This document shows positions 9,821 to 60,235 of a DNA stretch of 64,000 bases, piece by piece. A program made the translations under genes and the position numbers. The DNA is from Escherichia coli (lineage in GTDB: Bacteria > Pseudomonadota > Gammaproteobacteria > Enterobacterales > Enterobacteriaceae). The notes under the pieces are model-generated. The model had not been told where the DNA came from. It did not search any database and was given only the letters and a program-made list of their open reading frames with translations. Position 1 is the first letter of the stretch, and each line of letters begins with the position of its first letter. The stretch is taken from assembly GCF_009931435.1 (NCBI RefSeq), contig NZ_CP043414.1, one strand, 5' to 3'.

Positions 9821-10234
9821 AAGAAAACATCCCCTGAGAGTTTAATTTTCGTCAAGATGCGTGGCGGACAATCCCCTGCCAGCGAAACGTTATCTTCCTG
9901 CTCCAGGTTTGCGACAAATTGGTGCGTCGCAAAAACGCAAACGTTTAGCTCCGCGCATACAAAACGGGTGGTAAAAAAAGCAAACGATTATCCGGCGATC
10001 ATAGCGGCTTTTTCAACCGAAGTTTGCTGCTTTTTTCTCTTTTATTGTCTTGACGATGAAAAACCAGGCAATTGATGCGCAAACGTTATCGTCGATGCGC
10101 AAGATTGCAGCGTTATCGAACCGTATACCGTTCAGGATTGCGATAAAAAATCGTCTGAGATGACAAAAATATTGCGGCTAAAAAGTGTACTTTTACACTG
10201 GCGAAGAAACGCCGGTAACATACAATTAAAGCAT

Positions 10235-10375
10235 CAACACCAACCGGAACCTCCACCACGTGCTCGAATGAGGTGTGTTGACGTCGGGGGAAACCCTCCT
10301 GTGTACCAGCGGGATAGAGAGAAAGACAAAGACCGGAAAACAAACTAAAGCGCCCTTGTGGCGCTTTAGTTTTGT
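10235..10375 (+). ncRNA. ryjA: Candidate small RNA at the K-12 ryjA position (placement by synteny only)
   Basis: K-12 carries a ~140-nt sRNA between soxR and ghxP, convergent with soxR. Here a hairpin plus T-run at 10347-10375 could end a plus-strand transcript. Sequence not verified against ryjA. Confidence 0.25.
10347..10367. terminator. Hairpin at soxR 3' end (bidirectional terminator candidate)
   Basis: aaagcgcc-cttgt-ggcgcttt with T-rich flanks on both strands, overlapping the soxR stop codon. Confidence 0.5.
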
Positions 10376-13257: not shown

Positions 13258-13539
13258 ATGGCTACCCTCACCACTGGCGTGGTTCTTCTTCGCTGGCAAC
13301 TTCTTAGTGCCGTAATGATGTTTCTGGCCAGCACACTCAACATCCGTTTTCGCAAATCAGATTATATTGGTCTTGCGGTGATTAGCAGCGGCCTGGGCGT
13401 TGTTTCTGCCTGCTGGTTCGCTACCGGATTGCTCGGTATTACCATGATGGATATTACCGCTATCTGGCACAACATTGAGTCGGTGATGGTGGAAGCCATA
13501 AATCAGGCGCCACCTGAATGGCCAATGATTATGACCTGA
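13258..13539 (+). CDS. yjcB: Small inner-membrane protein YjcB, 93 aa
   Basis: MATLTTGVVLLRWQLLSAVMMFLASTLNIRF... preceded by gaggaa ribosome-binding site; track ORF begins 33 codons upstream. Confidence 0.7.
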   Translation: MATLTTGVVLLRWQLLSAVMMFLASTLNIRFRKSDYIGLAVISSGLGVVSACWFATGLLGITMMDITAIWHNIESVMVEAINQAPPEWPMIMT

Positions 13540-13548
13540 TGGCGGGAG

Positions 13549-13580
13549 TTTGTGCAGGATCCCCGGTGATTCTGCACAAA
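13549..13580. terminator. Inverted repeat between convergent yjcB and island porin gene
   Basis: tttgtgcag ... ctgcacaaa (9-bp arms, 14-nt loop); weak terminator candidate at the left island junction. Confidence 0.4.
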
Positions 13581-13594
13581 CAAATGATTAAGAC

Positions 13595-14956
13595 CTACAG
13601 TTTGATTGTAATCTGAGTTCCCACAACCCAGGCGTCGTCGATTTCACTCACCCCACCGGGATCAATCAGCAACTGCACATTGGGTCGCAATGTTAACCAC
13701 GGCGTCACCACAAAACTGTAATGCAATTCTGCCGCATACTCAGCGTCTCTTACTGGCGTCCAGGCGGGATTATCATAATCATCAAGACCCTTTTTATCAT
13801 TGAGCAATTGCGCCCGTCTGGCTACTTTACTGTTTTCGTGCATTTTGCTGACGCCAAAGCCAATGTAATCCTGCCCCCGACCGGAAAATGGCCCTTTATA
13901 AATAGCGCCAATTTGCGTCTGGTAATCCATTGTCGCAGTATCCCGATCATTCATCGCCAGATGCCAGAACAGAGAAAGGCCACCACGAGGAGAACGGGGA
14001 TCAGCAGTCACTTGCTGGAGTAAGTAGATCCAGCCACCGTAACGCCCATCGTGAGTCGCCGGGGGACGTTGGCTCGTAACGTAGTCATCGCCTTCTGCAT
14101 CCTTCAGGACGTCACTGGCTTTTGCTGTGTTATACCAGGCTCCTACTTTCCAGGCACCCGGAAGTTTATTCGCACCCAGCGTTGGTGTATACCCAAATTC
14201 CATAAGGTACATATTTCCTAATCTTCCAGTATTATCCAACTGGAAACTGCCGCTTCGCGTCGCATAATTTGGGTTATACATAAACGCGCCGGTCTGCAAA
14301 TAAACTTGCGGTGTAAAATTATAACGTAACCTGGCCCCCCACTGACCAATCGGTGTGTTATACCAGACTCCCGCACCATGACCTGCCAACGAACCACAGA
14401 GGGAAAGGTTCTGGAAATAACAACCATTGTTATCGAAGTCTTCGCCAACCGGCATTAATCCTAACTTTAAATCAATCGTTTTTGCATACCATGATTGACG
14501 ATACCAGAATTGCGCGGCATGCCAGGTTTGACCCCGGCCATAGTTACTGTTTACCGTCGAGCCAATCACTGGGGCTCGAGGATCCTGAATTCTGTCGCTG
14601 GTAAGATCGCGGCCGTTACGATCGATAACAGAGACTTTAAACTCTCCATCCGTGATACCCGCAATTTTTTGCAGATCAAAATCGGCACCGATAATATACT
14701 GGTCGCTATATCGCGCCGTCCGATCCTTGTTATAACCGCCTGAAATATTCGATGTCACCATCGAGCCATATTCCAGAGTAAAATCATATCCTTTGTTTTT
14801 TAACTCACTACGCACTCCATTCCAATCTCCAGCCATATATTTTCCGGTTGAGGAAAAAGGTAACTCATTGGCTAACGAACCAAATGGGAACATCAGTATC
14901 ATCAGGAAAATATAATTTTCCCGTATAGAATGATCCATATTATTTATCCTTTGCAA
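13595..14956 (-). CDS. Accessory island gene 1: outer-membrane porin-like protein (OprB/carbohydrate-selective or OprD-like; family uncertain), 453 aa or shorter
   Basis: Signal-peptide-like N-terminus (…FLMILMFPFGSLA|NELP…); mature part rich in Gly/Tyr/Asn/aromatic residues with alternating hydrophobicity typical of beta-barrel porins; N-terminal GDWNGVRSELKNKGYDF…NISGG resembles the OprB-family start as I recall it. True start may be the internal MDHS. Confidence 0.6.
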   Translation of the reverse strand: MQRINNMDHSIRENYIFLMILMFPFGSLANELPFSSTGKYMAGDWNGVRSELKNKGYDFTLEYGSMVTSNISGGYNKDRTARYSDQYIIGADFDLQKIAGITDGEFKVSVIDRNGRDLTSDRIQDPRAPVIGSTVNSNYGRGQTWHAAQFWYRQSWYAKTIDLKLGLMPVGEDFDNNGCYFQNLSLCGSLAGHGAGVWYNTPIGQWGARLRYNFTPQVYLQTGAFMYNPNYATRSGSFQLDNTGRLGNMYLMEFGYTPTLGANKLPGAWKVGAWYNTAKASDVLKDAEGDDYVTSQRPPATHDGRYGGWIYLLQQVTADPRSPRGGLSLFWHLAMNDRDTATMDYQTQIGAIYKGPFSGRGQDYIGFGVSKMHENSKVARRAQLLNDKKGLDDYDNPAWTPVRDAEYAAELHYSFVVTPWLTLRPNVQLLIDPGGVSEIDDAWVVGTQITIKL

Positions 14957-15060
14957 TCCGAATATAACATTCAGAGAAGCGCTACTGGCAAATATTTCTT
15001 AATGCTGGTGAAACACAGAAATTCTCTGGCAGGCCGATCCTTTCTTCCCGGTCAGTACGG

Positions 15061-16527
15061 CTACGGCGAAAGCTCTTCCAGTGATTTTCCCTTCGTTTCA
15101 ATAGCGAACAAATAGGTAACCAGGCCGCCTATTAACGCGATGACTGCGAACACAATAAAAACAAAGCGGATCCCAAAACCAGAAACAATGAATCCCACCA
15201 GCAACGGTCCAACGGAAGAGCCAGCCCGCAACCAGGCACTGGAAAATGCCGTTCCAATCGCTCTCAGGCGAGTGGGGTATAGCTCTGCAGAGTAGAGATA
15301 AAGAGAGAAGGCAATGGTCTGGAGAATGGCATACGTCATACTACCGAAAATAAGGATTTCAATGGCAGATTTGGCTCCGAAAATACAAAGAGTCACTAAC
15401 GGGATAATGGCCAGTAAATAAGCCCAGGTATACCAGCATTTTCTTCCAATACGATCGATAAGCAGTGCACAAATTACCGACGCAAAAACTCCACAGGAGG
15501 AAGTAATCCAACCATAAGCCAGACTGGTTTCCAGTGGTAAGTGAAAAAGCGTTTTATACATGGTAGGAAACCAGGTGATCATACCATTGTTCACCGTATA
15601 AACGGTCAGCCATAGTCCCCATAACATAAACGTGCGTGATTTATAGATGCCGGAAAATAGTTCTTTTACGCCACCTGCAGGTTCCTTTTGCACAACTGCA
15701 GGATTAATCACCGGCTCAGGTAATTCCATTCCTCGCTGCAGCGCTTCTTTCTCAAACGCCGCAACGACTTTCTCAGCCTGAACATGGCGACCTTTCGCTG
15801 TTAACCAGCGTGGAGACTCAGGCATTAACCAGCGTAACGGAACCGTCAATGCCGAAGGGATAAGACCTATCAAAAACATCACTTTCCAGCCGTAAAGCGG
15901 AACAAGAAAATAGCCTACAAGACCAGCAAACATCATACCGATCGGAAAAATCACCTCGTAGAGTAAAAAAAAGCGGCCACGTTTTTTTGCTCCGATAAAT
16001 TCATTGATATAAGCGCTGGCAACCGGAACTTCTGCCCCTATTCCTAATCCTTGCAGGAAACGGATAACCAGAATCGACCATCCATTCCAGGCAAACAGGC
16101 AAGCGGCATCCATCGCGACGAACATCACAATGGTGATACGCAACACGCCAATGCGGCCAATTTTTTCTGCCAGAGAGCCAAAAAAGAGTGCGCCGCAGAG
16201 CTGCCCAACATAGCTTGCGGCAATGATCAGCCCGATGAAGGTTGGTGTTAATCCCCATTCCTGAGTGAGTTGCGGTAGCGCAAAAGCTATCGCGATAATG
16301 GTGTAAGCATCAAAGAATGTCGATAAACCCACCACTACACGAATAGCTAAAAGACGCCTGGTGACAGGGAGTCGTTCGAGCCTGGCAAGCAGCGTTGCGG
16401 GATCGCCTTCCCGCGGACTGGCAATAATACTTTCAGAAGTAATAACCTGAGTTGACATAGCGATATCCTGTTGATTGATTCGCAAGACAACGAACTGCGC
16501 CAAACCCAGCGGCTGGCAGCTATTCAC
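15061..16527 (-). CDS. Accessory island gene 2: MFS transporter (sugar-porter / aromatic-acid:H+ symporter-like), about 465-488 aa
   Basis: 12-TM profile; MFS signature motifs (…GRIGVLRITI…, …LMPESPRWL…). Track start is GTG at 16527; MSTQVITSES at about 16458 is an alternative start. Confidence 0.8.
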   Translation of the reverse strand: MNSCQPLGLAQFVVLRINQQDIAMSTQVITSESIIASPREGDPATLLARLERLPVTRRLLAIRVVVGLSTFFDAYTIIAIAFALPQLTQEWGLTPTFIGLIIAASYVGQLCGALFFGSLAEKIGRIGVLRITIVMFVAMDAACLFAWNGWSILVIRFLQGLGIGAEVPVASAYINEFIGAKKRGRFFLLYEVIFPIGMMFAGLVGYFLVPLYGWKVMFLIGLIPSALTVPLRWLMPESPRWLTAKGRHVQAEKVVAAFEKEALQRGMELPEPVINPAVVQKEPAGGVKELFSGIYKSRTFMLWGLWLTVYTVNNGMITWFPTMYKTLFHLPLETSLAYGWITSSCGVFASVICALLIDRIGRKCWYTWAYLLAIIPLVTLCIFGAKSAIEILIFGSMTYAILQTIAFSLYLYSAELYPTRLRAIGTAFSSAWLRAGSSVGPLLVGFIVSGFGIRFVFIVFAVIALIGGLVTYLFAIETKGKSLEELSP

Positions 16528-16565
16528 TTGCAGTTATTTGAGAATCTATCTGCATAAAAACCATA

Positions 16566-16593
16566 ATGAAAACGTTTCTGCAATCGTTTTCAT
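16566..16593. promoter_or_regulatory. Operator-like inverted repeat atgaaaacg-N10-cgttttcat in the divergent MFS / regulator promoter region
   Basis: Perfect 9-bp arms with 10-bp spacer; embedded tgcaatcgttttca fits the LacI/cre-type pattern TGnAAnCGnTTnCA; followed by tataat at 16595-16600. Second copy at 18068-18093. Confidence 0.45.
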
Positions 16594-16885
16594 GTATAAT
16601 TATCGTCATTAGTTTCCCGGGGGATGTCAATTCGACTCAGCGAATATTTGTTAATCAGTTCACATTCCGGATATCTGCTTAGAGAAAAAATGTGATGTTG
16701 TTCTTAAAGCCATCAAGAAAGCTCGCGACAAAGATCGGATACGTACACGCTCAGGACGTAGTAAACATCCAACATTTCTTTGTACATACAAAAAATTGCC
16801 GTACCATTTTACAAGGCCAATCATTACGCACTGGCCTTTTGAATGACGGGACCTTTCAGGTAATTAATACATACGGGAGTCAGCT

Positions 16886-17914
16886 ATGAGCCTGGAAAGC
16901 GAAGAAAAAGACCAAACAGAAAAAAAGCTGATCACCATGCGTGACGTGGCGAATGCTGCCGGGGTGAGTATTTCTACCGTTTCGCGTATCCTGGATGAAA
17001 GATTACCGCCATCTAAAAGCGCTTCTGCCGAAAAAGTACGCCAGGTCGCACGCGAATTGGGCTATCGTCGGGATTATGTTGCCTCCAGTCTCCGTCGCGG
17101 CGGCACCGGGACACTTGGTGTATTAGTTCCACGCCTGACTGATGCAGTTACTGCAATGTTGTTTGAAGAAATCGCTAAAGCAGCGTCGCATCGTGGTTAC
17201 TTCGCAGTGGTCGCGACTTGTGGAGACGATCCCCAGCAAGAGCGAGAATCTGTAGAATCACTTCTCGACAGGCGGGTCGACGGCTTGATTATGTCAACCT
17301 GTCGCCTCGGCGATCCCCTACCGCAAACTTTGCGTGAAAGGGATATTCCCCATGTGCTCGCCCTGCGTACTGATGGTGTTAGCCCATCATCCATCGGCGA
17401 TGATGAACTGGGTGGTTACCTTGCTACTCGCCATCTTATTGATTTAGGACATAAAAACATCGGTTTGATAGGTGGCCCGGATTTTGCCTCAAATGCGCTT
17501 AATCGCCGTAAAGGTTTTGAAAAGGCAATGCGCGAAGCCGGACTAACTATACAGCCGCAATGGTGCTGTTCATCAGACTTTAACATCCAGTCGGGAGAAG
17601 AAGCAGGGATGAAACTCCTCAGAACGACTCCTGCTCCAACCGCTATTTTTGCGGTAAATGACGAAATAGCGATTGGTGTGGTTGCTGCCGCTCACCATTT
17701 GGGGATAACAATCGGCCAAGAGTTGTCGTTAGTGGGTTATAACGACATTCCTCTGGTCAGCCGACTTCCTGTGGCGCTCACTTCCGTAAGAACGCCGCTA
17801 GAGCATATCGCCAGTAATGCTGTGGACATGTTGATTAATGCCGACAGTGGCCGCTCTTTGCGTACAACCATACCGACTTTAATACCAAGAAAATCAACGA
17901 GTTCACCCAAGTAA
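16886..17914 (+). CDS. Accessory island gene 3: LacI-family transcriptional regulator, about 325-342 aa
   Basis: N-terminal HTH (…ITMRDVANAAGVSISTVSRILDE…) followed by a periplasmic-binding-protein-like sugar-binding domain; alternative start at MRDVA (about 16937). Confidence 0.85.
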   Translation: MSLESEEKDQTEKKLITMRDVANAAGVSISTVSRILDERLPPSKSASAEKVRQVARELGYRRDYVASSLRRGGTGTLGVLVPRLTDAVTAMLFEEIAKAASHRGYFAVVATCGDDPQQERESVESLLDRRVDGLIMSTCRLGDPLPQTLRERDIPHVLALRTDGVSPSSIGDDELGGYLATRHLIDLGHKNIGLIGGPDFASNALNRRKGFEKAMREAGLTIQPQWCCSSDFNIQSGEEAGMKLLRTTPAPTAIFAVNDEIAIGVVAAAHHLGITIGQELSLVGYNDIPLVSRLPVALTSVRTPLEHIASNAVDMLINADSGRSLRTTIPTLIPRKSTSSPK

Positions 17915-17923
17915 AGCCTGTCT

Positions 17924-17962
17924 TTCATTTGCTGCAAAACCCGGGGTTTTGCAGCAAATGAA
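17924..17962. other. 39-bp near-perfect palindrome just downstream of the regulator gene
   Basis: ttcatttgctgcaaaaccc-g-gggttttgcagcaaatgaa (19-bp arms); no U-tract follows, so either an unusual terminator or a protein-binding site. Confidence 0.4.
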
Positions 17963-18067
17963 GAACATTAAAATTCTTATATTCCTTCCCTGATTTTGTG
18001 ATCCCTGCTGCATTTTTCAACAACTGTTGATTGACAACCTCATTCATCAGGTTCAAATTCAATCTTG

Positions 18068-18093
18068 TGAAAACGATTGCAAGAACGTTTTCA
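18068..18093. promoter_or_regulatory. Operator-like inverted repeat tgaaaacg-N10-cgttttca upstream of the DapA-like/FAH/Dcu genes
   Basis: Perfect 8-bp arms, 10-bp spacer, about 60-80 bp upstream of the ATG at 18151; first arm plus spacer (tgaaaacgattgca) matches TGnAAnCGnTTnCA exactly. Same architecture as 16566-16593. Confidence 0.45.
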
Positions 18094-18150
18094 TTTCGTT
18101 TCTTGCATTGTCCACATAATAAAAAAGACTAAATTATTAAGGAGATAGTC

Positions 18151-19080
18151 ATGATCAATATAGATCTCAGAGGTTTGACCCCGGCACCGGTTACCCCTTT
18201 CAATCGTGATGGTAGTATTGATTTTGATGCTATCCAGCGTCTGGGAAGCTGGCTGGGTAGTATTGACGGCGTTAAAGGGTTAGTTGTACTTGGTCATGCT
18301 GGTGAAGGTACTTTCCTGACACAAGATGAACAGGCCGCTGTGATCCGTGCTTTCGTAAAATCCGTAGATGGCAAGCTGCCTATCATTGCCGGTATCACCG
18401 GTGAAGGGACTGACGTCGCTGCTAAAGAAGCCAAACGTGCCGTGGAAGCTGGTGCTTCAGCAGGCCTGTTATATCCTTCTCATGGATGGTTGCGTTTCGG
18501 CTACCAGGACGGCGCACCACAAGATCGCTACCGCGTTGTCTATGAAGAAAGCGGCCTGCCCTTGATCCTGTTTCAGTATCCTGATGTGACTAAAGCAACC
18601 TATAATCTGCAAACACTGCTGGATATTTCCGCACAACCCGGTGTTTTTGCTATGAAAAATGGTGTACGCAATATGCGTCGTTGGGATACAGAGATCCCGG
18701 TTATCCGCCGCGAGCGTCCGGAATTACAGATCCTCAGTTGCCATGATGAATATCTGGTACACACTGCTTTTGACGTAGATGGTTTCCTTGTCGGCTATGG
18801 CAATATTGCGCCAGAACCGCTCATCGAGATGATCAAAGCAGGTAAAGCTGGCGATTATAAAAAAGCACGCGCGATACATGACCGTCTGCTGCCAGTAACG
18901 AAGTGCGTATATCATCGCGGTTCCCATATGGAAGGAACCGTCGCCCTGAAACACGCGCTGGTTGCTCGCGGTATTCTCGAACATGCTACTGTTCGTTCAC
19001 CGCTATTACCGCTGGAGCATGGTGCCGAAGAAGAAATTCATGCTGCTATGCGTGCAGCTGACCTGCCGCGCGTTAAATAA
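18151..19080 (+). CDS. Accessory island gene 4: DapA/NAL-family class I aldolase or dehydratase (dihydrodipicolinate synthase-like), 309 aa
   Basis: Family-typical layout: …TPAPVTPFNRDGSIDFDAIQRLGSWL…GLVVLGHAGEGTFLTQDEQ…, Tyr in …LFQYPDVT…, candidate Schiff-base Lys in …VFAMKNGV…. Good ribosome-binding site (aaggag) upstream. Confidence 0.8.
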   Translation: MINIDLRGLTPAPVTPFNRDGSIDFDAIQRLGSWLGSIDGVKGLVVLGHAGEGTFLTQDEQAAVIRAFVKSVDGKLPIIAGITGEGTDVAAKEAKRAVEAGASAGLLYPSHGWLRFGYQDGAPQDRYRVVYEESGLPLILFQYPDVTKATYNLQTLLDISAQPGVFAMKNGVRNMRRWDTEIPVIRRERPELQILSCHDEYLVHTAFDVDGFLVGYGNIAPEPLIEMIKAGKAGDYKKARAIHDRLLPVTKCVYHRGSHMEGTVALKHALVARGILEHATVRSPLLPLEHGAEEEIHAAMRAADLPRVK

Positions 19081-19351
19081 CTCCGGCAACAGAAAAGAAA
19101 GCAGTATTCTAAATCACTACTCCTGATGGTTATTGCTTTCTTTCACTTAATGCCACATTAACGACGACAGCCACCTTTACATACAATCATAAGGTGGCTC
19201 ATTCTCTTCATCAGCCTATTGTCGCGCCGGGCTATTTTGAATAACTCAGATGTAATAATGATGAGATTGTTAGAATCCAGGCCATAGTACAACGTCTCAG
19301 AAGCCAGAAGGTAAGTAATGCCCTGATCATGGCATGAATTGAAGGAACATC

Positions 19352-20233
19352 ATGAAACTGCTCAGTTTTTCTGTAGATAACGAAGAAAAGTATGGTGCCA
19401 TCGTATCCGATGGAATTATTGACTTGCATAAATTATTTCCCGAACTTCCCGACCTGAAATCATACGTTGCCAGTCAACATTCATTAGACATCGCTTTGTT
19501 TGCAGGTAAAAAAGCCGATTACCATCAGGGCGAAGTGACTTTTCTGCCCGTAATTACTCGACCAAATAAAATCATCTGCGCAGGTATGAACTACCGGGAA
19601 AAATGTGCAGAATTTAATGAAAAAGGTGGCGATCCGACGCTATTTATCCGTTTTGCTGATACTCAGACGGGCCACCGTTGTGGGTTAATAAAACCGACCC
19701 TGAGTAATGAATTTGATTATGAAGGCGAACTGGCGGTAATTATAGGTCGCCAGGGTTCTCACATTCCTGCTGATGAAGCATTTAACTATATTGCCGGGTA
19801 TAGCTGTTATATGGATGGTTCCGTTCGTGACTGGCAGCACAGCTGGTTTACTGCCGGTAAAAATTGGCCTGCAACAGGTGGATTCGGGCCATGGATGGTT
19901 ACGCCAGATGAAATTCCTGACCCTCAAAATCTGAATATTATCACCCGTCTTAACGGCAAGGAAGTGCAGAATGATAATACACATAGCATGCTGCACTCTA
20001 TTAAGGATTTGATTGCCTATATCAGTACTTTCACCACCTTATCGCCCGGTGACGTGATATTAACAGGCTCTCCGGGTGGGGTCGGTAAAAAACGCTCTCC
20101 ACCGCTCTTCTTGTGGCCTGGTGATATTGTTGAAGTTGAGATTTCAAGAATTGGTTGCCTGATAAATCACATTATAAGCGACAACGAAGAGTATCCGGTC
20201 ACTTTACAATCAGAACTCGATAACGCCTGCTGA
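19352..20233 (+). CDS. Accessory island gene 5: fumarylacetoacetate hydrolase (FAH) family protein (hydratase/decarboxylase/hydrolase type), 293 aa
   Basis: FAH-fold core …FDYEGELAVIIGRQGSHIPADEAFNYIAGYSCYMDGSVRDWQ… and …GDVILTGSPGGVG…. Confidence 0.8.
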   Translation: MKLLSFSVDNEEKYGAIVSDGIIDLHKLFPELPDLKSYVASQHSLDIALFAGKKADYHQGEVTFLPVITRPNKIICAGMNYREKCAEFNEKGGDPTLFIRFADTQTGHRCGLIKPTLSNEFDYEGELAVIIGRQGSHIPADEAFNYIAGYSCYMDGSVRDWQHSWFTAGKNWPATGGFGPWMVTPDEIPDPQNLNIITRLNGKEVQNDNTHSMLHSIKDLIAYISTFTTLSPGDVILTGSPGGVGKKRSPPLFLWPGDIVEVEISRIGCLINHIISDNEEYPVTLQSELDNAC

Positions 20234-20320
20234 TTATAAAGTTAACGAAAAATTCGGATAGATAGCCTGGCACTTTAGAAATTAACATTAAGTGGTAGGC
20301 AATCCTTTCAAGGAGTATGC

Positions 20321-21610
20321 GTGATGATCATGCTGCAATTTATTATCGTTTTATTTTTCCTGTTTTTAGGAATGCGTATTGGCGGCATTGGTGTCGGATT
20401 TGCTGGTGGGGCAGGTGTCATCGCCTTGTGCGCCCTTGGTGCAACACCCGGCGATTTACCGATGCTGGTGATCGTTTTTATTATGGTTGTCATCATTGCA
20501 ATTGCTGCAATGCAAGAAGCGGGTGGGATTGACTATCTGGTTGGTTTAACCGAAAAAATGCTTCGCCGCTACCCTCGCCTGCTGGTAATAACTGCACCTC
20601 TGTCTACATGGCTATTAACCATGATGGCCAGTACCGGTCAGGTGTCATTTGCCTGTATGCCGGTTATTGTGGGTGTCGCGAAGGAAAATCAACTTCGTCC
20701 CACCCGGGCGTTGGCGCTTTCGGTTACCGCTTCATTGTTAGGTATTGTTGCCTCGCCTATCTCTGCCGCCGTTATTTTCTTTTCAGGCATCCTGGAAAAA
20801 AATCACCAGGGATGGGGATATTTGCAACTCATTGCCGTTTCTATACCGGCTACTTTATTAGCGTTGATTTGTACTTCGCTTTTTTACCTGTTCTGGGACA
20901 AACTTCGCCAGAATGATCAATTACCCGTACATATGGCTGTAACGAAAAAATCTCTGTCTGCGCCTGTGGTACAGGGAGCTCGTCGCTCAGTACTAATATT
21001 TATTTTTGGCCTAGTTGTAGTACTTTTTTACGCCCTCATTGCCAGTCCGAAAACAGGCGTTATCATACATCCCGTTTTAAATAGTGGACAGGTCCGTATT
21101 TCAGTAATGATGGCTGTAGCACTCGCCATTGTTATGTTTTGCCGGGTAAATGTGAATAACATTCCTGCGACATCAGTTTTTAAAACAGGGATGACGTCAT
21201 GCATCTGTATTTTAGGTGTCGCCTGGCTCGGTTCTACATTCATGGATAGTAACCAGGTGTGGTTTCAAAGCATGATTTCCGGATATTTATTAGATTCACC
21301 ATTGTTGCTGGCAATTATTATTATGCTGGCGTCATGTTTTCTATATTCTCAGGCGGCCTCCACCAAAATACTTTTTCCTATTGCATTAAGTATGGGTATC
21401 GCCCCTGCCACTCTGGTCGCCTGCTTTCCAGCAACGGCTTCTCTTTTTATTTTACCTAACTACCCCACATTATTAGCCGCCGTGACTCTTGATGATACGG
21501 GGTCAACGAAATTAGGAAATCGAATAATCGATCATCCGTTTATTGTTCCTGGTTTAATGGCAACCGTGTTATCGATACTCTTCGCCGCGGGATTCGCATT
21601 GTTTATTTAA
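20321..21610 (+). CDS. Accessory island gene 6: Dcu-family (DcuA/DcuB-like) C4-dicarboxylate transporter, about 429 aa
   Basis: Close resemblance along the whole length to E. coli DcuA as recalled (…LGMRIGGIGVGFAGGAGV…, …AMQEAGGIDYLV…, …TKLGNRIIDHPFIVPG…); about 10-12 TM segments. Confidence 0.85.
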   Translation: MMIMLQFIIVLFFLFLGMRIGGIGVGFAGGAGVIALCALGATPGDLPMLVIVFIMVVIIAIAAMQEAGGIDYLVGLTEKMLRRYPRLLVITAPLSTWLLTMMASTGQVSFACMPVIVGVAKENQLRPTRALALSVTASLLGIVASPISAAVIFFSGILEKNHQGWGYLQLIAVSIPATLLALICTSLFYLFWDKLRQNDQLPVHMAVTKKSLSAPVVQGARRSVLIFIFGLVVVLFYALIASPKTGVIIHPVLNSGQVRISVMMAVALAIVMFCRVNVNNIPATSVFKTGMTSCICILGVAWLGSTFMDSNQVWFQSMISGYLLDSPLLLAIIIMLASCFLYSQAASTKILFPIALSMGIAPATLVACFPATASLFILPNYPTLLAAVTLDDTGSTKLGNRIIDHPFIVPGLMATVLSILFAAGFALFI

Positions 21611-21698
21611 AATGTATATGGCAGGAGTCAATATCATCAGACTCATAGTTCACATAAAACAAACTGCAGCATCATCAACATCACTCAGGTATTAAAAA

Positions 21699-21720
21699 TC
21701 CCCAACCAGCCTGTTGGGGA
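21699..21720. terminator. Hairpin between island and ssb (likely ssb terminator, bidirectional)
   Basis: tccccaac-cagcct-gttgggga; A-run upstream (a T-run on the ssb strand) and T-rich sequence downstream. Confidence 0.55.
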
Positions 21721-21822
21721 TAAATATGTATTTTTCAATGTCCCGAGTAGCTACCGGGCAGATATCAATCTGAGGCTGTGGCTAACGCACACTGGCGGTA
21801 ACCACCTGAACCAAAAGAAATC

Positions 21823-22359
21823 TTAGAACGGAATGTCGTCATCAAAATCCATCGGCGGCTCATTAGACGGTGCTGCCGGAGCAGACTGCTGCGGGCGAGA
21901 CTGCGCGCCGCCGCTGAACTGATTGCCGCCCTGCGGCTGCTGAGGCTGACCCCAACCGCCCTGCGGCTGACCACCACCGATATTGCCACCTGCAGGAGCG
22001 CCACCACCCTGACGACCACCCAGCATCTGCATGGTGCCGCCAACGTTTACCACAACTTCAGTGGTGTAGCGATCTTGACCGGATTGATCGGTCCATTTGC
22101 GGGTACGCAGCTGACCTTCGATATAAACCTGAGAACCTTTACGCAGATATTCGCTGGCCACTTCTGCCAGTTTGCCGAACAGCACAACGCGGTGCCATTC
22201 AGTCTGCTCTTTCATCTCGCCGGTCGCTTTATCACGCCAGGATTCGGAAGTAGCCAGCGTAATGTTGGCAACTGCGCCACCATTTGGCATGTAGCGTACT
22301 TCCGGGTCCTGACCCAGATTACCAACGAGAATAACCTTGTTTACGCCTCTGCTGGCCAT
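21823..22359 (-). CDS. ssb: Single-stranded DNA-binding protein, 178 aa
   Basis: [44 protein letters not shown]…, Gly/Gln-rich tail ending DFDDDIPF. Confidence 0.97.
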
Positions 22360-22512
22360 GTTCGTGTCTCCTGAAAAAAAATCGTTCTGAATAAGTGTAA
22401 ACGCGCGATTGTACCATTACCAATAGCGCTTTTACTATGTTGTGACCTCGGTTCAGGGAAACAAACCTGGCCAGACATTGTTACACAACACTCCGGGTAA
22501 TGCATTCCAATA

Positions 22513-22528
22513 CTGTATATTCATTCAG
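22513..22528. promoter_or_regulatory. LexA box shared by divergent ssb / uvrA promoters
   Basis: ctgtatattcattcag (CTGT-N8-CAG) within tactgtatattcattcaggtca, about 90 bp upstream of uvrA. Confidence 0.8.
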
Positions 22529-22613
22529 GTCAATTTGTGTCATAATTAACCGTTTGTGATCGCCGGTAGCACCATGCCACCGGGCAAAAAAGCGTTTAAT
22601 CCGGGAAAGGTGA

Positions 22614-52213: not shown

Positions 52214-53104
52214 ATGGCAATGGTCCAACCGAAATCGCAAAAAGCACGTTTGTTTATTACTCATCTGCTACTGCTACTTTTTATCGCGGCGATTATGTTC
52301 CCGCTGCTGATGGTCGTCGCTATCTCTCTGCGTCAGGGGAACTTCGCGACTGGTAGCCTGATCCCGGAACAAATCTCCTGGGATCACTGGAAACTGGCGT
52401 TAGGTTTTAGCGTTGAACAGGCTGATGGGCGCATTACGCCACCGCCGTTCCCGGTACTGCTGTGGCTGTGGAACTCAGTAAAGGTCGCCGGAATTTCCGC
52501 GATTGGCATTGTTGCGCTCTCCACCACCTGCGCCTACGCTTTCGCCCGTATGCGCTTTCCTGGTAAAGCGACACTGCTGAAAGGCATGCTGATTTTCCAG
52601 ATGTTCCCGGCGGTGCTTTCACTGGTAGCGTTGTATGCGTTATTTGATCGTTTGGGTGAGTACATTCCATTCATCGGCCTGAATACTCACGGCGGCGTAA
52701 TCTTCGCGTACCTGGGGGGGATTGCGCTGCATGTCTGGACCATCAAAGGCTATTTCGAAACCATCGACAGTTCGCTGGAAGAAGCGGCGGCGCTGGATGG
52801 TGCAACACCGTGGCAGGCCTTCCGCCTTGTCCTGTTGCCGCTGTCAGTGCCGATTCTGGCGGTGGTGTTCATCCTGTCGTTTATCGCTGCCATTACTGAA
52901 GTTCCGGTCGCGTCGTTGTTACTGCGTGACGTAAACAGCTACACCCTGGCCGTGGGAATGCAGCAATACCTCAACCCGCAAAACTACCTGTGGGGTGACT
53001 TTGCCGCCGCTGCCGTGATGTCTGCATTACCGATCACCATCGTCTTCTTGCTGGCTCAACGCTGGCTGGTCAACGGACTGACGGCAGGTGGTGTGAAAGG
53101 TTAA
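52214..53104 (+). CDS. malG: Maltose ABC transporter permease MalG, 296 aa
   Basis: [44 protein letters not shown]…; EAA-loop permease. Confidence 0.95.
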
Positions 53105-53174
53105 AGATGTTGTTCTGCCAATGTTATGCCGCTACACCCTCAACTTACGTTATCCCAACTTGTGACTGTTATTC

Positions 53175-53199
53175 GGCGCTCTATGGAGCGCCTTTTTTT
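53175..53199 (+). terminator. Intrinsic terminator downstream of malG
   Basis: ggcgctc-tatg-gagcgcc followed by ttttttt; the T-run overlaps the psiE stop codon on the other strand. Confidence 0.7.
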
Positions 53200-53608
53200 A
53201 CTCCCGCTTCAGCCGTTTCGAATTACACAGCCATAAGGTGATCACCAGTAGCAGGATCGCTGCCGAGTAGATCAACACATCCAGTGGTGATTTATGATCG
53301 ACGATGATCAAGCGCACAATGGCGGTGATCCCGATATAGACAAAGTAACGCAAGGGAAAGTGAAAACCGGACTGAAAGTACTTCACAATCAGCGCGATAA
53401 ATTCGAAATAGAGAAAGTAAACCACCAGCCCTTCCACCAGCTCATATTTGCTGGCTTGTTCTGGCGCGAACAGCACATCAGCCAGATGCACCGTTTCTTT
53501 GCCGAGGAAGACAACCAAAATCAGGCCGAGACACAACAGGCCAAGATTGAGAACGGTCTGCAAAATGGTGGAGATAAACTCCACGCGCGGACGAGAGAGT
53601 GACGTCAT
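53198..53608 (-). CDS. psiE: Phosphate-starvation-inducible inner-membrane protein PsiE, 136 aa
   Basis: [47 protein letters not shown]…. Confidence 0.9.
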
Positions 53609-57554: not shown

Positions 57555-57961
57555 AACAATTTCCCTTCATTGAATGAATGGAGATTTACCCAAAAACATT
57601 TCGGGCGGGATCGAGTATACACAACTAAAGCATGCGAATTACGGCGTGGGGAATTAGTGATGGGGTTTTAAGATAATTGGAATGAATATCAAATATAAGT
57701 TTCAACTTATATATAAATAATATTTAAAATCAAAAATTTAAAACAAAATCAAAAATAATTAACCTACGTATTTTCCGAAATCAATCATGATTAAAAATCT
57801 ATTTTAGGATTAACCTCACGGTATGATTTTCGTTAAATCACAGACAAGGGGATTTATCTGATAAAACAATGCCGACTTATAGTCGGCATTGTTATTAAGG
57901 TTATTTAATCAATCCTGCTATGTATTAATTGCCGAATATGATGTACATATCGGCATCGACC

Positions 57962-58040
<79 letters not shown>

Positions 58041-59944: not shown

Positions 59945-60235
59945 CTGCGCTAGCGCAGGCCAGAAGAGGCGCGTTGCCCAAGTAACGGTGTTGGAGGAGC
60001 CAGTCCTGTGATAACACCTGAGGGGGTGCATCGCCGAGGTGATTGAACGGCTGGCCACGTTCATCATCGGCTACAGGGGCTGAATCCCCTGGGTTGTCAC
60101 CAGAAGCGTTCGCAGTCGGGCGTTTCGCAAGTGGTGGAGCACTTCTGGGTGAAAATAGTAGCGAAGTATCGCTCTGCGCCCACCCGTCTTCCGCTCTTCC
60201 CTTGTGCCAAGGCTGAAAATGGATCCCCTGACACG
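59945..60235 (+). promoter_or_regulatory. Lysine riboswitch (LYS element / L box) in the lysC leader
   Basis: About 300-nt structured leader with conserved segments as I recall them for the lysC riboswitch (…ccagaagaggcgcgttgcccaagtaacggtgttggaggagccag…ggtgcatcgccgaggtgattgaacggctgg…); immediately upstream of lysC. Confidence 0.8.

Follow-up and report, generated by a model that had tools for sequence, protein, structure and literature searches.

The divergent spacer between ssb and uvrA in this stretch of Escherichia coli DNA contains a palindrome that resembles a LexA operator, and two more such palindromes lie upstream of lexA in the same window (the whole 64,000 nucleotides analysed). The question is whether these palindromes are LexA operators, which of the adjoining genes they can control, and whether an 8.3-kb island located beside ssb has altered that control. 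The window is a segment of the E. coli chromosome that corresponds to the region near 92 min of K-12 in reverse orientation. The three palindromes are almost certainly canonical E. coli LexA operators, an assignment that is based here on identity to K-12, rank in a position weight matrix (PWM) scan, conservation, and the identities of the genes. From the literature, in which LexA binding and RecA/LexA-dependent induction are experimentally established for identical K-12 sequences (PMC9505508, PMC6590174), we infer LexA binding, the promoter positions and co-transcription in this strain.

The stretch from 22360 to 22613 is exactly the spacer of 254 bp between the ATG of ssb (22359, minus strand) and the ATG of uvrA (22614, plus strand). 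The 178-aa product of ssb (21823-22359, minus strand) matches NCBIfam NF006533 over its full length (residues 1-178, 360 bits), and the 940-aa product of uvrA (22614-25436, plus strand) matches NCBIfam NF001503 over its full length (residues 1-940, 1628 bits). The preliminary description located the 16-mer ctgtatattcattcag at 22513-22528 in this spacer, where it is indeed found, within the 20-mer TACTGTATATTCATTCAGGT (22511-22530), a LexA box (SOS box) common to uvrA and ssb that agrees with the consensus TACTG(TA)5CAGTA at 15 of 20 positions. On the uvrA side, the sequence can be read to include a putative extended -10 element, TGTCATAAT (22538-22546, plus strand), which would put the start of uvrA transcription near 22553; the box would then extend from about -42 to -23 and cover the -35 region. 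Overlap of the box with the -35 element of uvrA is also reported in the literature, together with a heterology index (HI) of 6.98 (PMC9505508), a value cited for the K-12 uvrA/ssb site that is identical to the site in the window (compilations of Lewis 1994 and Fernandez de Henestrosa 2000, cited in PMC9505508). The predicted uvrA leader (22553-22625) has no significant structure when folded (z = -0.26), and a CCGGT...ACCGG hairpin within it is unsupported as a feature by that fold.

On the ssb side, the box is 152-171 nt from the ATG. The hexamer TTGACC (22528-22533, read from 22533 to 22528 on the minus strand), which abuts or overlaps the box, is a candidate -35 element of a distal, LexA-controlled ssb promoter, from which transcription is predicted to start just below 22504 on the minus strand. 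An extended -10-like element much closer to ssb, TGGTACAAT (22408-22416, read from 22416 to 22408 on the minus strand), plausibly belongs to a proximal, LexA-independent promoter and is kept in most Enterobacterales spacers (identity 0.82). This arrangement is consistent with the published finding that ssb has three promoters, of which only the most distal is open to repression by LexA (PMC9505508). The designation of the box as shared therefore holds for its common position and its overlap with the uvrA -35 region, but the sharing is asymmetric, as control of ssb is confined to one promoter of three.

The asymmetry lends some force to the view that 22511-22530 is the operator of uvrA only, that ssb is effectively constitutive, and that calling the box shared is an overstatement. 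The distance of the box from the ssb ATG, the restriction of repression to the most distal promoter, and the position of the conserved proximal -10-like element well outside the box would all fit such an arrangement, as would the LexA-independent heterogeneity of ssb expression in Salmonella under non-inducing conditions (PMC8072944). SOS control of ssb has long been disputed, and several studies saw no induction, among them radioimmunoassays and three microarray studies (PMC9505508). Against these stand RT-qPCR measurements in which UV and gamma irradiation raised ssb expression modestly and in a LexA-dependent manner, and in which ssb was overexpressed under constitutive induction of the SOS response; with a single promoter of three under LexA control, ssb is only weakly SOS-inducible (PMC9505508). 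On the ssb strand, the box is adjoined by the -35-like TTGACC, and its flank on the ssb side, TGCATTCCAAT, is conserved in Enterobacteriaceae. Exclusive control of uvrA is thus unlikely, and a LexA operator that acts on uvrA and, to a lesser extent, on ssb is the preferred reading.

The second locus conforms to the same preliminary description, in which two boxes (38625-38661) precede lexA and dinF follows lexA in the same direction. The lexA gene (38008-38616, minus strand, ATG at 38616) encodes 202 aa that match TIGR00498 with 289.5 bits. Box 1, the distal one (38644-38663), reads TGCTGTATATACTCACAGCA on the minus strand from 38663 to 38644 and is 27 nt upstream of the ATG; box 2, the proximal one (38623-38642), reads AACTGTATATACACCCAGGG on the minus strand from 38642 to 38623 and is 6 nt upstream. 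Their CTG-N10-CAG cores are 38646-38661 and 38625-38640, respectively, and their centers are 21 bp apart, approximately two helical turns. The -10 element of lexA can be read from the sequence as TATACT (38656 to 38651, minus strand), and the -35-like hexamer TTCCAA (38674-38679, read from 38679 to 38674 on the minus strand) is found 17 nt upstream of it; TTCCAA is taken to be the lexA -35 element on the basis of the classical lexA promoter literature. With these elements, transcription of lexA is predicted to start near 38644, so that box 1 would cover the -10 element and the transcription start, and box 2 would be located in the early transcribed region.

The dinF gene (36610-37989, minus strand) encodes a MATE transporter of 459 aa (NF007690, full length, 903 bits) and begins 18 nt downstream of lexA. 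The two genes have the layout of an operon: they are co-directional, and the 18-nt gap contains no operator and leaves no room for a terminator. The PWM scan of the 64-kb window found no match near dinF and thus no LexA box of its own. In the literature, dinF lacks its own operator and is co-transcribed with lexA, and ssb, uvrA and lexA are listed among the genes with known SOS boxes (PMC6590174); co-transcription of dinF with lexA in this strain is expected on the strength of that report.

That these are known sites is borne out by comparison with K-12, to which all three boxes are identical base for base. K-12 has the same divergent order of uvrA and ssb, the same distances to both ATGs, the same 20-mer, and an identical 139-bp stretch around it that runs from 22476 to the uvrA ATG. 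The whole spacer differs from that of MG1655 at 2 of 254 positions, both outside the box on the ssb-proximal side: a run of eight A residues beside the ssb ribosome-binding site, compared to seven in K-12, and a substitution at 22455 (A in the window, C in K-12). The dgkA-lexA intergenic region is identical at 109 of 109 positions, and the 18-nt lexA-dinF gap is identical as well. The coding sequences have diverged much more. Third codon positions differ from K-12 at 14 of 179 codons in ssb and at 26 of 290 in uvrA (8-9%), lexA has 24 synonymous differences, and the dgkA-lexA-dinF segment (36610-39094) differs at 135 of 2485 positions. SSB, LexA, DgkA and UvrA residues 1-290 nevertheless have 100% amino-acid identity to K-12, and DinF differs from K-12 DinF by 12 amino-acid substitutions. 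Both control regions evolve far more slowly than synonymous sites, and because the boxes are unchanged amid this divergence at third codon positions, their identity to K-12 is not trivial. At both 36610-39094 and 21823-23485, divergence of the strain from K-12 is unusually high.

The same sequences bear on the earlier statement that the boxes confirm the assigned strands and starts. The boxes are consistent with those assignments but do not by themselves confirm them; independent confirmation of the strands and starts of the genes comes from the full-length NCBIfam matches and from protein identity to K-12 (SSB, LexA, and UvrA residues 1-290).

Among 5426 complete E. coli genomes, the ssb/uvrA spacer is found in 5425, with at least 99% identity in 4901 records, and the region upstream of lexA is likewise found in 5425. 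The most divergent allele of the spacer in E. coli (90.9% identity) retains an invariant block of 59 bp, TTGCATTCCAATACTGTATATTCATTCAGGTCAATTTGTGTCATAATTAACCGTTTGTGA, that contains the box and the -10 element, and it is the flanks that vary. An alignment of the spacer from eight Enterobacterales (the window, E. albertii, Citrobacter, two Enterobacter, Superficieibacter, Photorhabdus, and one uncultured member) places the most conserved 20-nt stretch at 22509, coinciding with the box. In this alignment, mean identity to the window is 0.94 in the box and 0.95 in 22537-22546, which contains the predicted uvrA -10 element, compared to 0.64 in the spacer outside 22511-22546.

Conservation beyond the genus was surveyed by scanning species-representative genomes with a back-translated motif from the N-terminus of UvrA, which identified 120 loci, mostly in Gammaproteobacteria and Betaproteobacteria. 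SSB is encoded within 1.5 kb upstream of uvrA at 29 of these loci, in the divergent orientation in every case (29 of 29), and the spacer is shorter than 500 bp at 20 of the 29. Of these 20 short spacers, 12 contain a LexA-type box that scores 16 bits or more: all seven from Enterobacterales, that of Haemophilus haemolyticus, and four from Oxalobacteraceae. The four Oxalobacteraceae loci (L010, L020, L076, L110) have divergent ssb-uvrA with the box TACTGGTATTATATACAGTR (21-23 bits), and the Haemophilus locus (L009) has the same gene arrangement with a LexA-type box of 16.6 bits. In many other Proteobacteria with divergent ssb-uvrA the box is absent. In Salmonella enterica Typhimurium, the ssb/uvrA box is likewise common to both divergent genes, with an HI of 6.99, and the lexA boxes have the spacing seen in the window, 6 and 27 nt before the start codon; the HI values of the latter, 14.48 and 7.94, imply a sequence difference in at least one of the two boxes (PMC8072944).

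Conservation of 22501-22559 could instead be attributed to overlap between the divergent core promoters, or to a different regulator (ArcA, for example), and not to LexA, since the invariant block extends past the box into the -10 element and the flanks, and since an ArcA site is drawn in the ssb/uvrA spacer in Fig. 1 of a published study (PMC9505508). However, the half-sites CTG and CAG are invariant in eight of eight Enterobacterales, and a LexA-type score is kept despite diverged flanks in Photorhabdus, Haemophilus and Oxalobacteraceae, which makes it highly improbable that the conservation has nothing to do with LexA. Promoter conservation and a LexA operator are compatible, since operator and promoters overlap by design.

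The remaining evidence for LexA operators is statistical. The PWM scan of the window that the preliminary description proposed was carried out with a symmetric matrix of 20 positions, constructed from 23 other E. coli LexA boxes with the three tested sites held out; the training boxes are those of published compilations rather than of a curated file, and they score 13.3-26.5 bits (median 19.0). The three highest-scoring sites in the 64-kb window are lexA box 1 (19.57 bits), the ssb/uvrA box (19.16 bits) and lexA box 2 (18.53 bits), in that order. According to the exact score distribution for the base composition of the window, 0.02 sites of at least 18.5 bits are expected by chance per 64 kb, and therefore the three sites are highly significant. 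The fourth match, TATTGTTTTTCACGACAGTA at 551-570 in the acs-nrfA spacer, scores 11.09 bits, below every training box and at the level of chance (1.5 sites with at least this score expected per 64 kb), and is rejected as a LexA box. All three top-ranked sites have the CTG-N10-CAG core, a score in the range of validated boxes, and conservation above the neutral background, and they are situated in the correct intergenic regions beside -10-like elements, with their overlap of promoters taken from the literature. The bare CTG-N10-CAG pattern is unspecific, with 21 matches in the window, most of them in coding sequence and plainly non-functional, but the idea that the three palindromes are likewise chance occurrences without regulatory function in AT-rich intergenic DNA, to which these matches and the fourth PWM site might lend credence, is refuted by the statistics and by conservation and has practically no probability, since all three are in promoter regions of classical SOS genes, remain identical to K-12 amid 8-9% synonymous divergence, and are kept across genera.

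A scan for sigma-70 consensus promoters found none in either spacer (ssb/uvrA or lexA) at the thresholds of the tool, because the weak -35 hexamers of the known promoters fall below those thresholds; the promoter positions given above therefore rest on the literature and on manual reading of weaker hexamer matches. A search of the whole window at Rfam gathering level gave no match to an RNA family in the two regulatory regions. Its matches elsewhere in the window are the sraL sRNA (10233-10373), three naRNA4 elements of REP type (2908-2979, 46336-46406, 57966-58037), STnc430 (57751-57900), and a lysine riboswitch upstream of lysC (59956-60152).

If the three palindromes function in this strain as their identical counterparts do in K-12, LexA dimers would occupy the 20-bp palindrome at 22511-22530 in undamaged cells, where they would repress uvrA about 4-fold and ssb only at the distal one of its three promoters. 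Two LexA dimers would occupy 38644-38663 and 38623-38642, covering lexA from its -10 element through the transcription start into the early transcribed region, and the lexA-dinF transcript would thereby be autoregulated. Upon DNA damage, RecA bound to single-stranded DNA would stimulate self-cleavage of LexA, the operators would be vacated, and uvrA and lexA-dinF would be induced, with ssb induced modestly. The strain-specific island of 8.3 kb on the 3' side of ssb would leave the control region unchanged.

The island (13541-21824) is located between yjcB (13258-13539) and the stop codon of ssb, has a GC content of about 0.45-0.48, and encodes a porin of the OprB family, an MFS sugar transporter, a LacI-family regulator, a DHDPS-family enzyme, an FAA-hydrolase-family enzyme, and a DcuA/B-type transporter. 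No integrase or transposase is found among these six ORFs, all of which have metabolic, transport or regulatory functions; there is no tRNA in the window, and there are no flanking direct repeats at the ends of the island. Among 5426 complete E. coli genomes, only 12 carry the island (99.8-99.9% identity), whereas 5425 have its flanks. The island is absent from K-12, in which the gap between yjcB and ssb is 98 bp: the sequence can be aligned to K-12 as far as 13540 and again from 21825, and therefore the intergenic region of K-12, including a bidirectional terminator, has been replaced. The preliminary description had the island inserted on the far side of ssb from its SOS-regulated promoter, which is correct as to the side, 3' of ssb, but the island stands in place of the 98-bp region and its terminator and was not simply added to them. 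As the island is 3' of ssb, the SOS promoter region is untouched. The island itself contains no LexA box, its highest PWM score being 7.75 bits (18006-18025). Two related imperfect palindromes of 26 nt, TGAAAACGTTTCTGCAATCGTTTTCA (16567-16592) and TGAAAACGATTGCAAGAACGTTTTCA (18068-18093), occur in the island, one in the divergent spacer between the MFS and LacI-family genes and the other upstream of the DHDPS-family gene; they look like operators for the LacI-family regulator of the island.

The island does supply a terminator-like hairpin and T-run downstream of ssb (21698-21721, read from 21721 to 21698 on the minus strand). Transcripts of ssb, including those induced by the SOS response, may now end at this hairpin, facing the convergent gene of the DcuA/B-type transporter, and damage-induced read-through into 20321-21610 could then produce antisense RNA on the transporter gene or the changed 3' end could affect the stability of ssb mRNA. 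Such coupling of SOS-induced ssb transcription to the island through the altered 3' end is very unlikely; if true, it would connect a rare metabolic island with the SOS response.

Three other differences or features of the window are recorded here. The xylE gene, which in K-12 is located between malG and psiE, is absent between malG (52214-53104) and psiE (53198-53608); of the 5426 complete E. coli genomes, 1786 share this malG-psiE junction (53105-53197), and the absence of xylE is thus a common polymorphism. Between ubiC and malM, an ORF of low GC content (about 0.36) at 43447-45027 (minus strand) encodes a protein of 526 aa that is SopA-like in its central domain and contains pentapeptide repeats, in the position of yjbI, a pseudogene in K-12. 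Another ORF of low GC content (about 0.36) at 34407-35411 (minus strand) encodes a DUF2713 protein of 334 aa in the yjbL/yjbM position.

The LexA sites of this window are textbook sites that were already known, and the value of their analysis is mainly that of quality control: the window represents normal E. coli core chromosome in which the SOS circuitry is intact and strands and starts are correctly assigned. It provides a clean positive control for LexA-box scanning, with three true sites of at least 18.5 bits and all other matches at the level of chance. For the biology of this strain, the result means that acquisition of a rare island beside ssb has left the control region of ssb and uvrA undisturbed.
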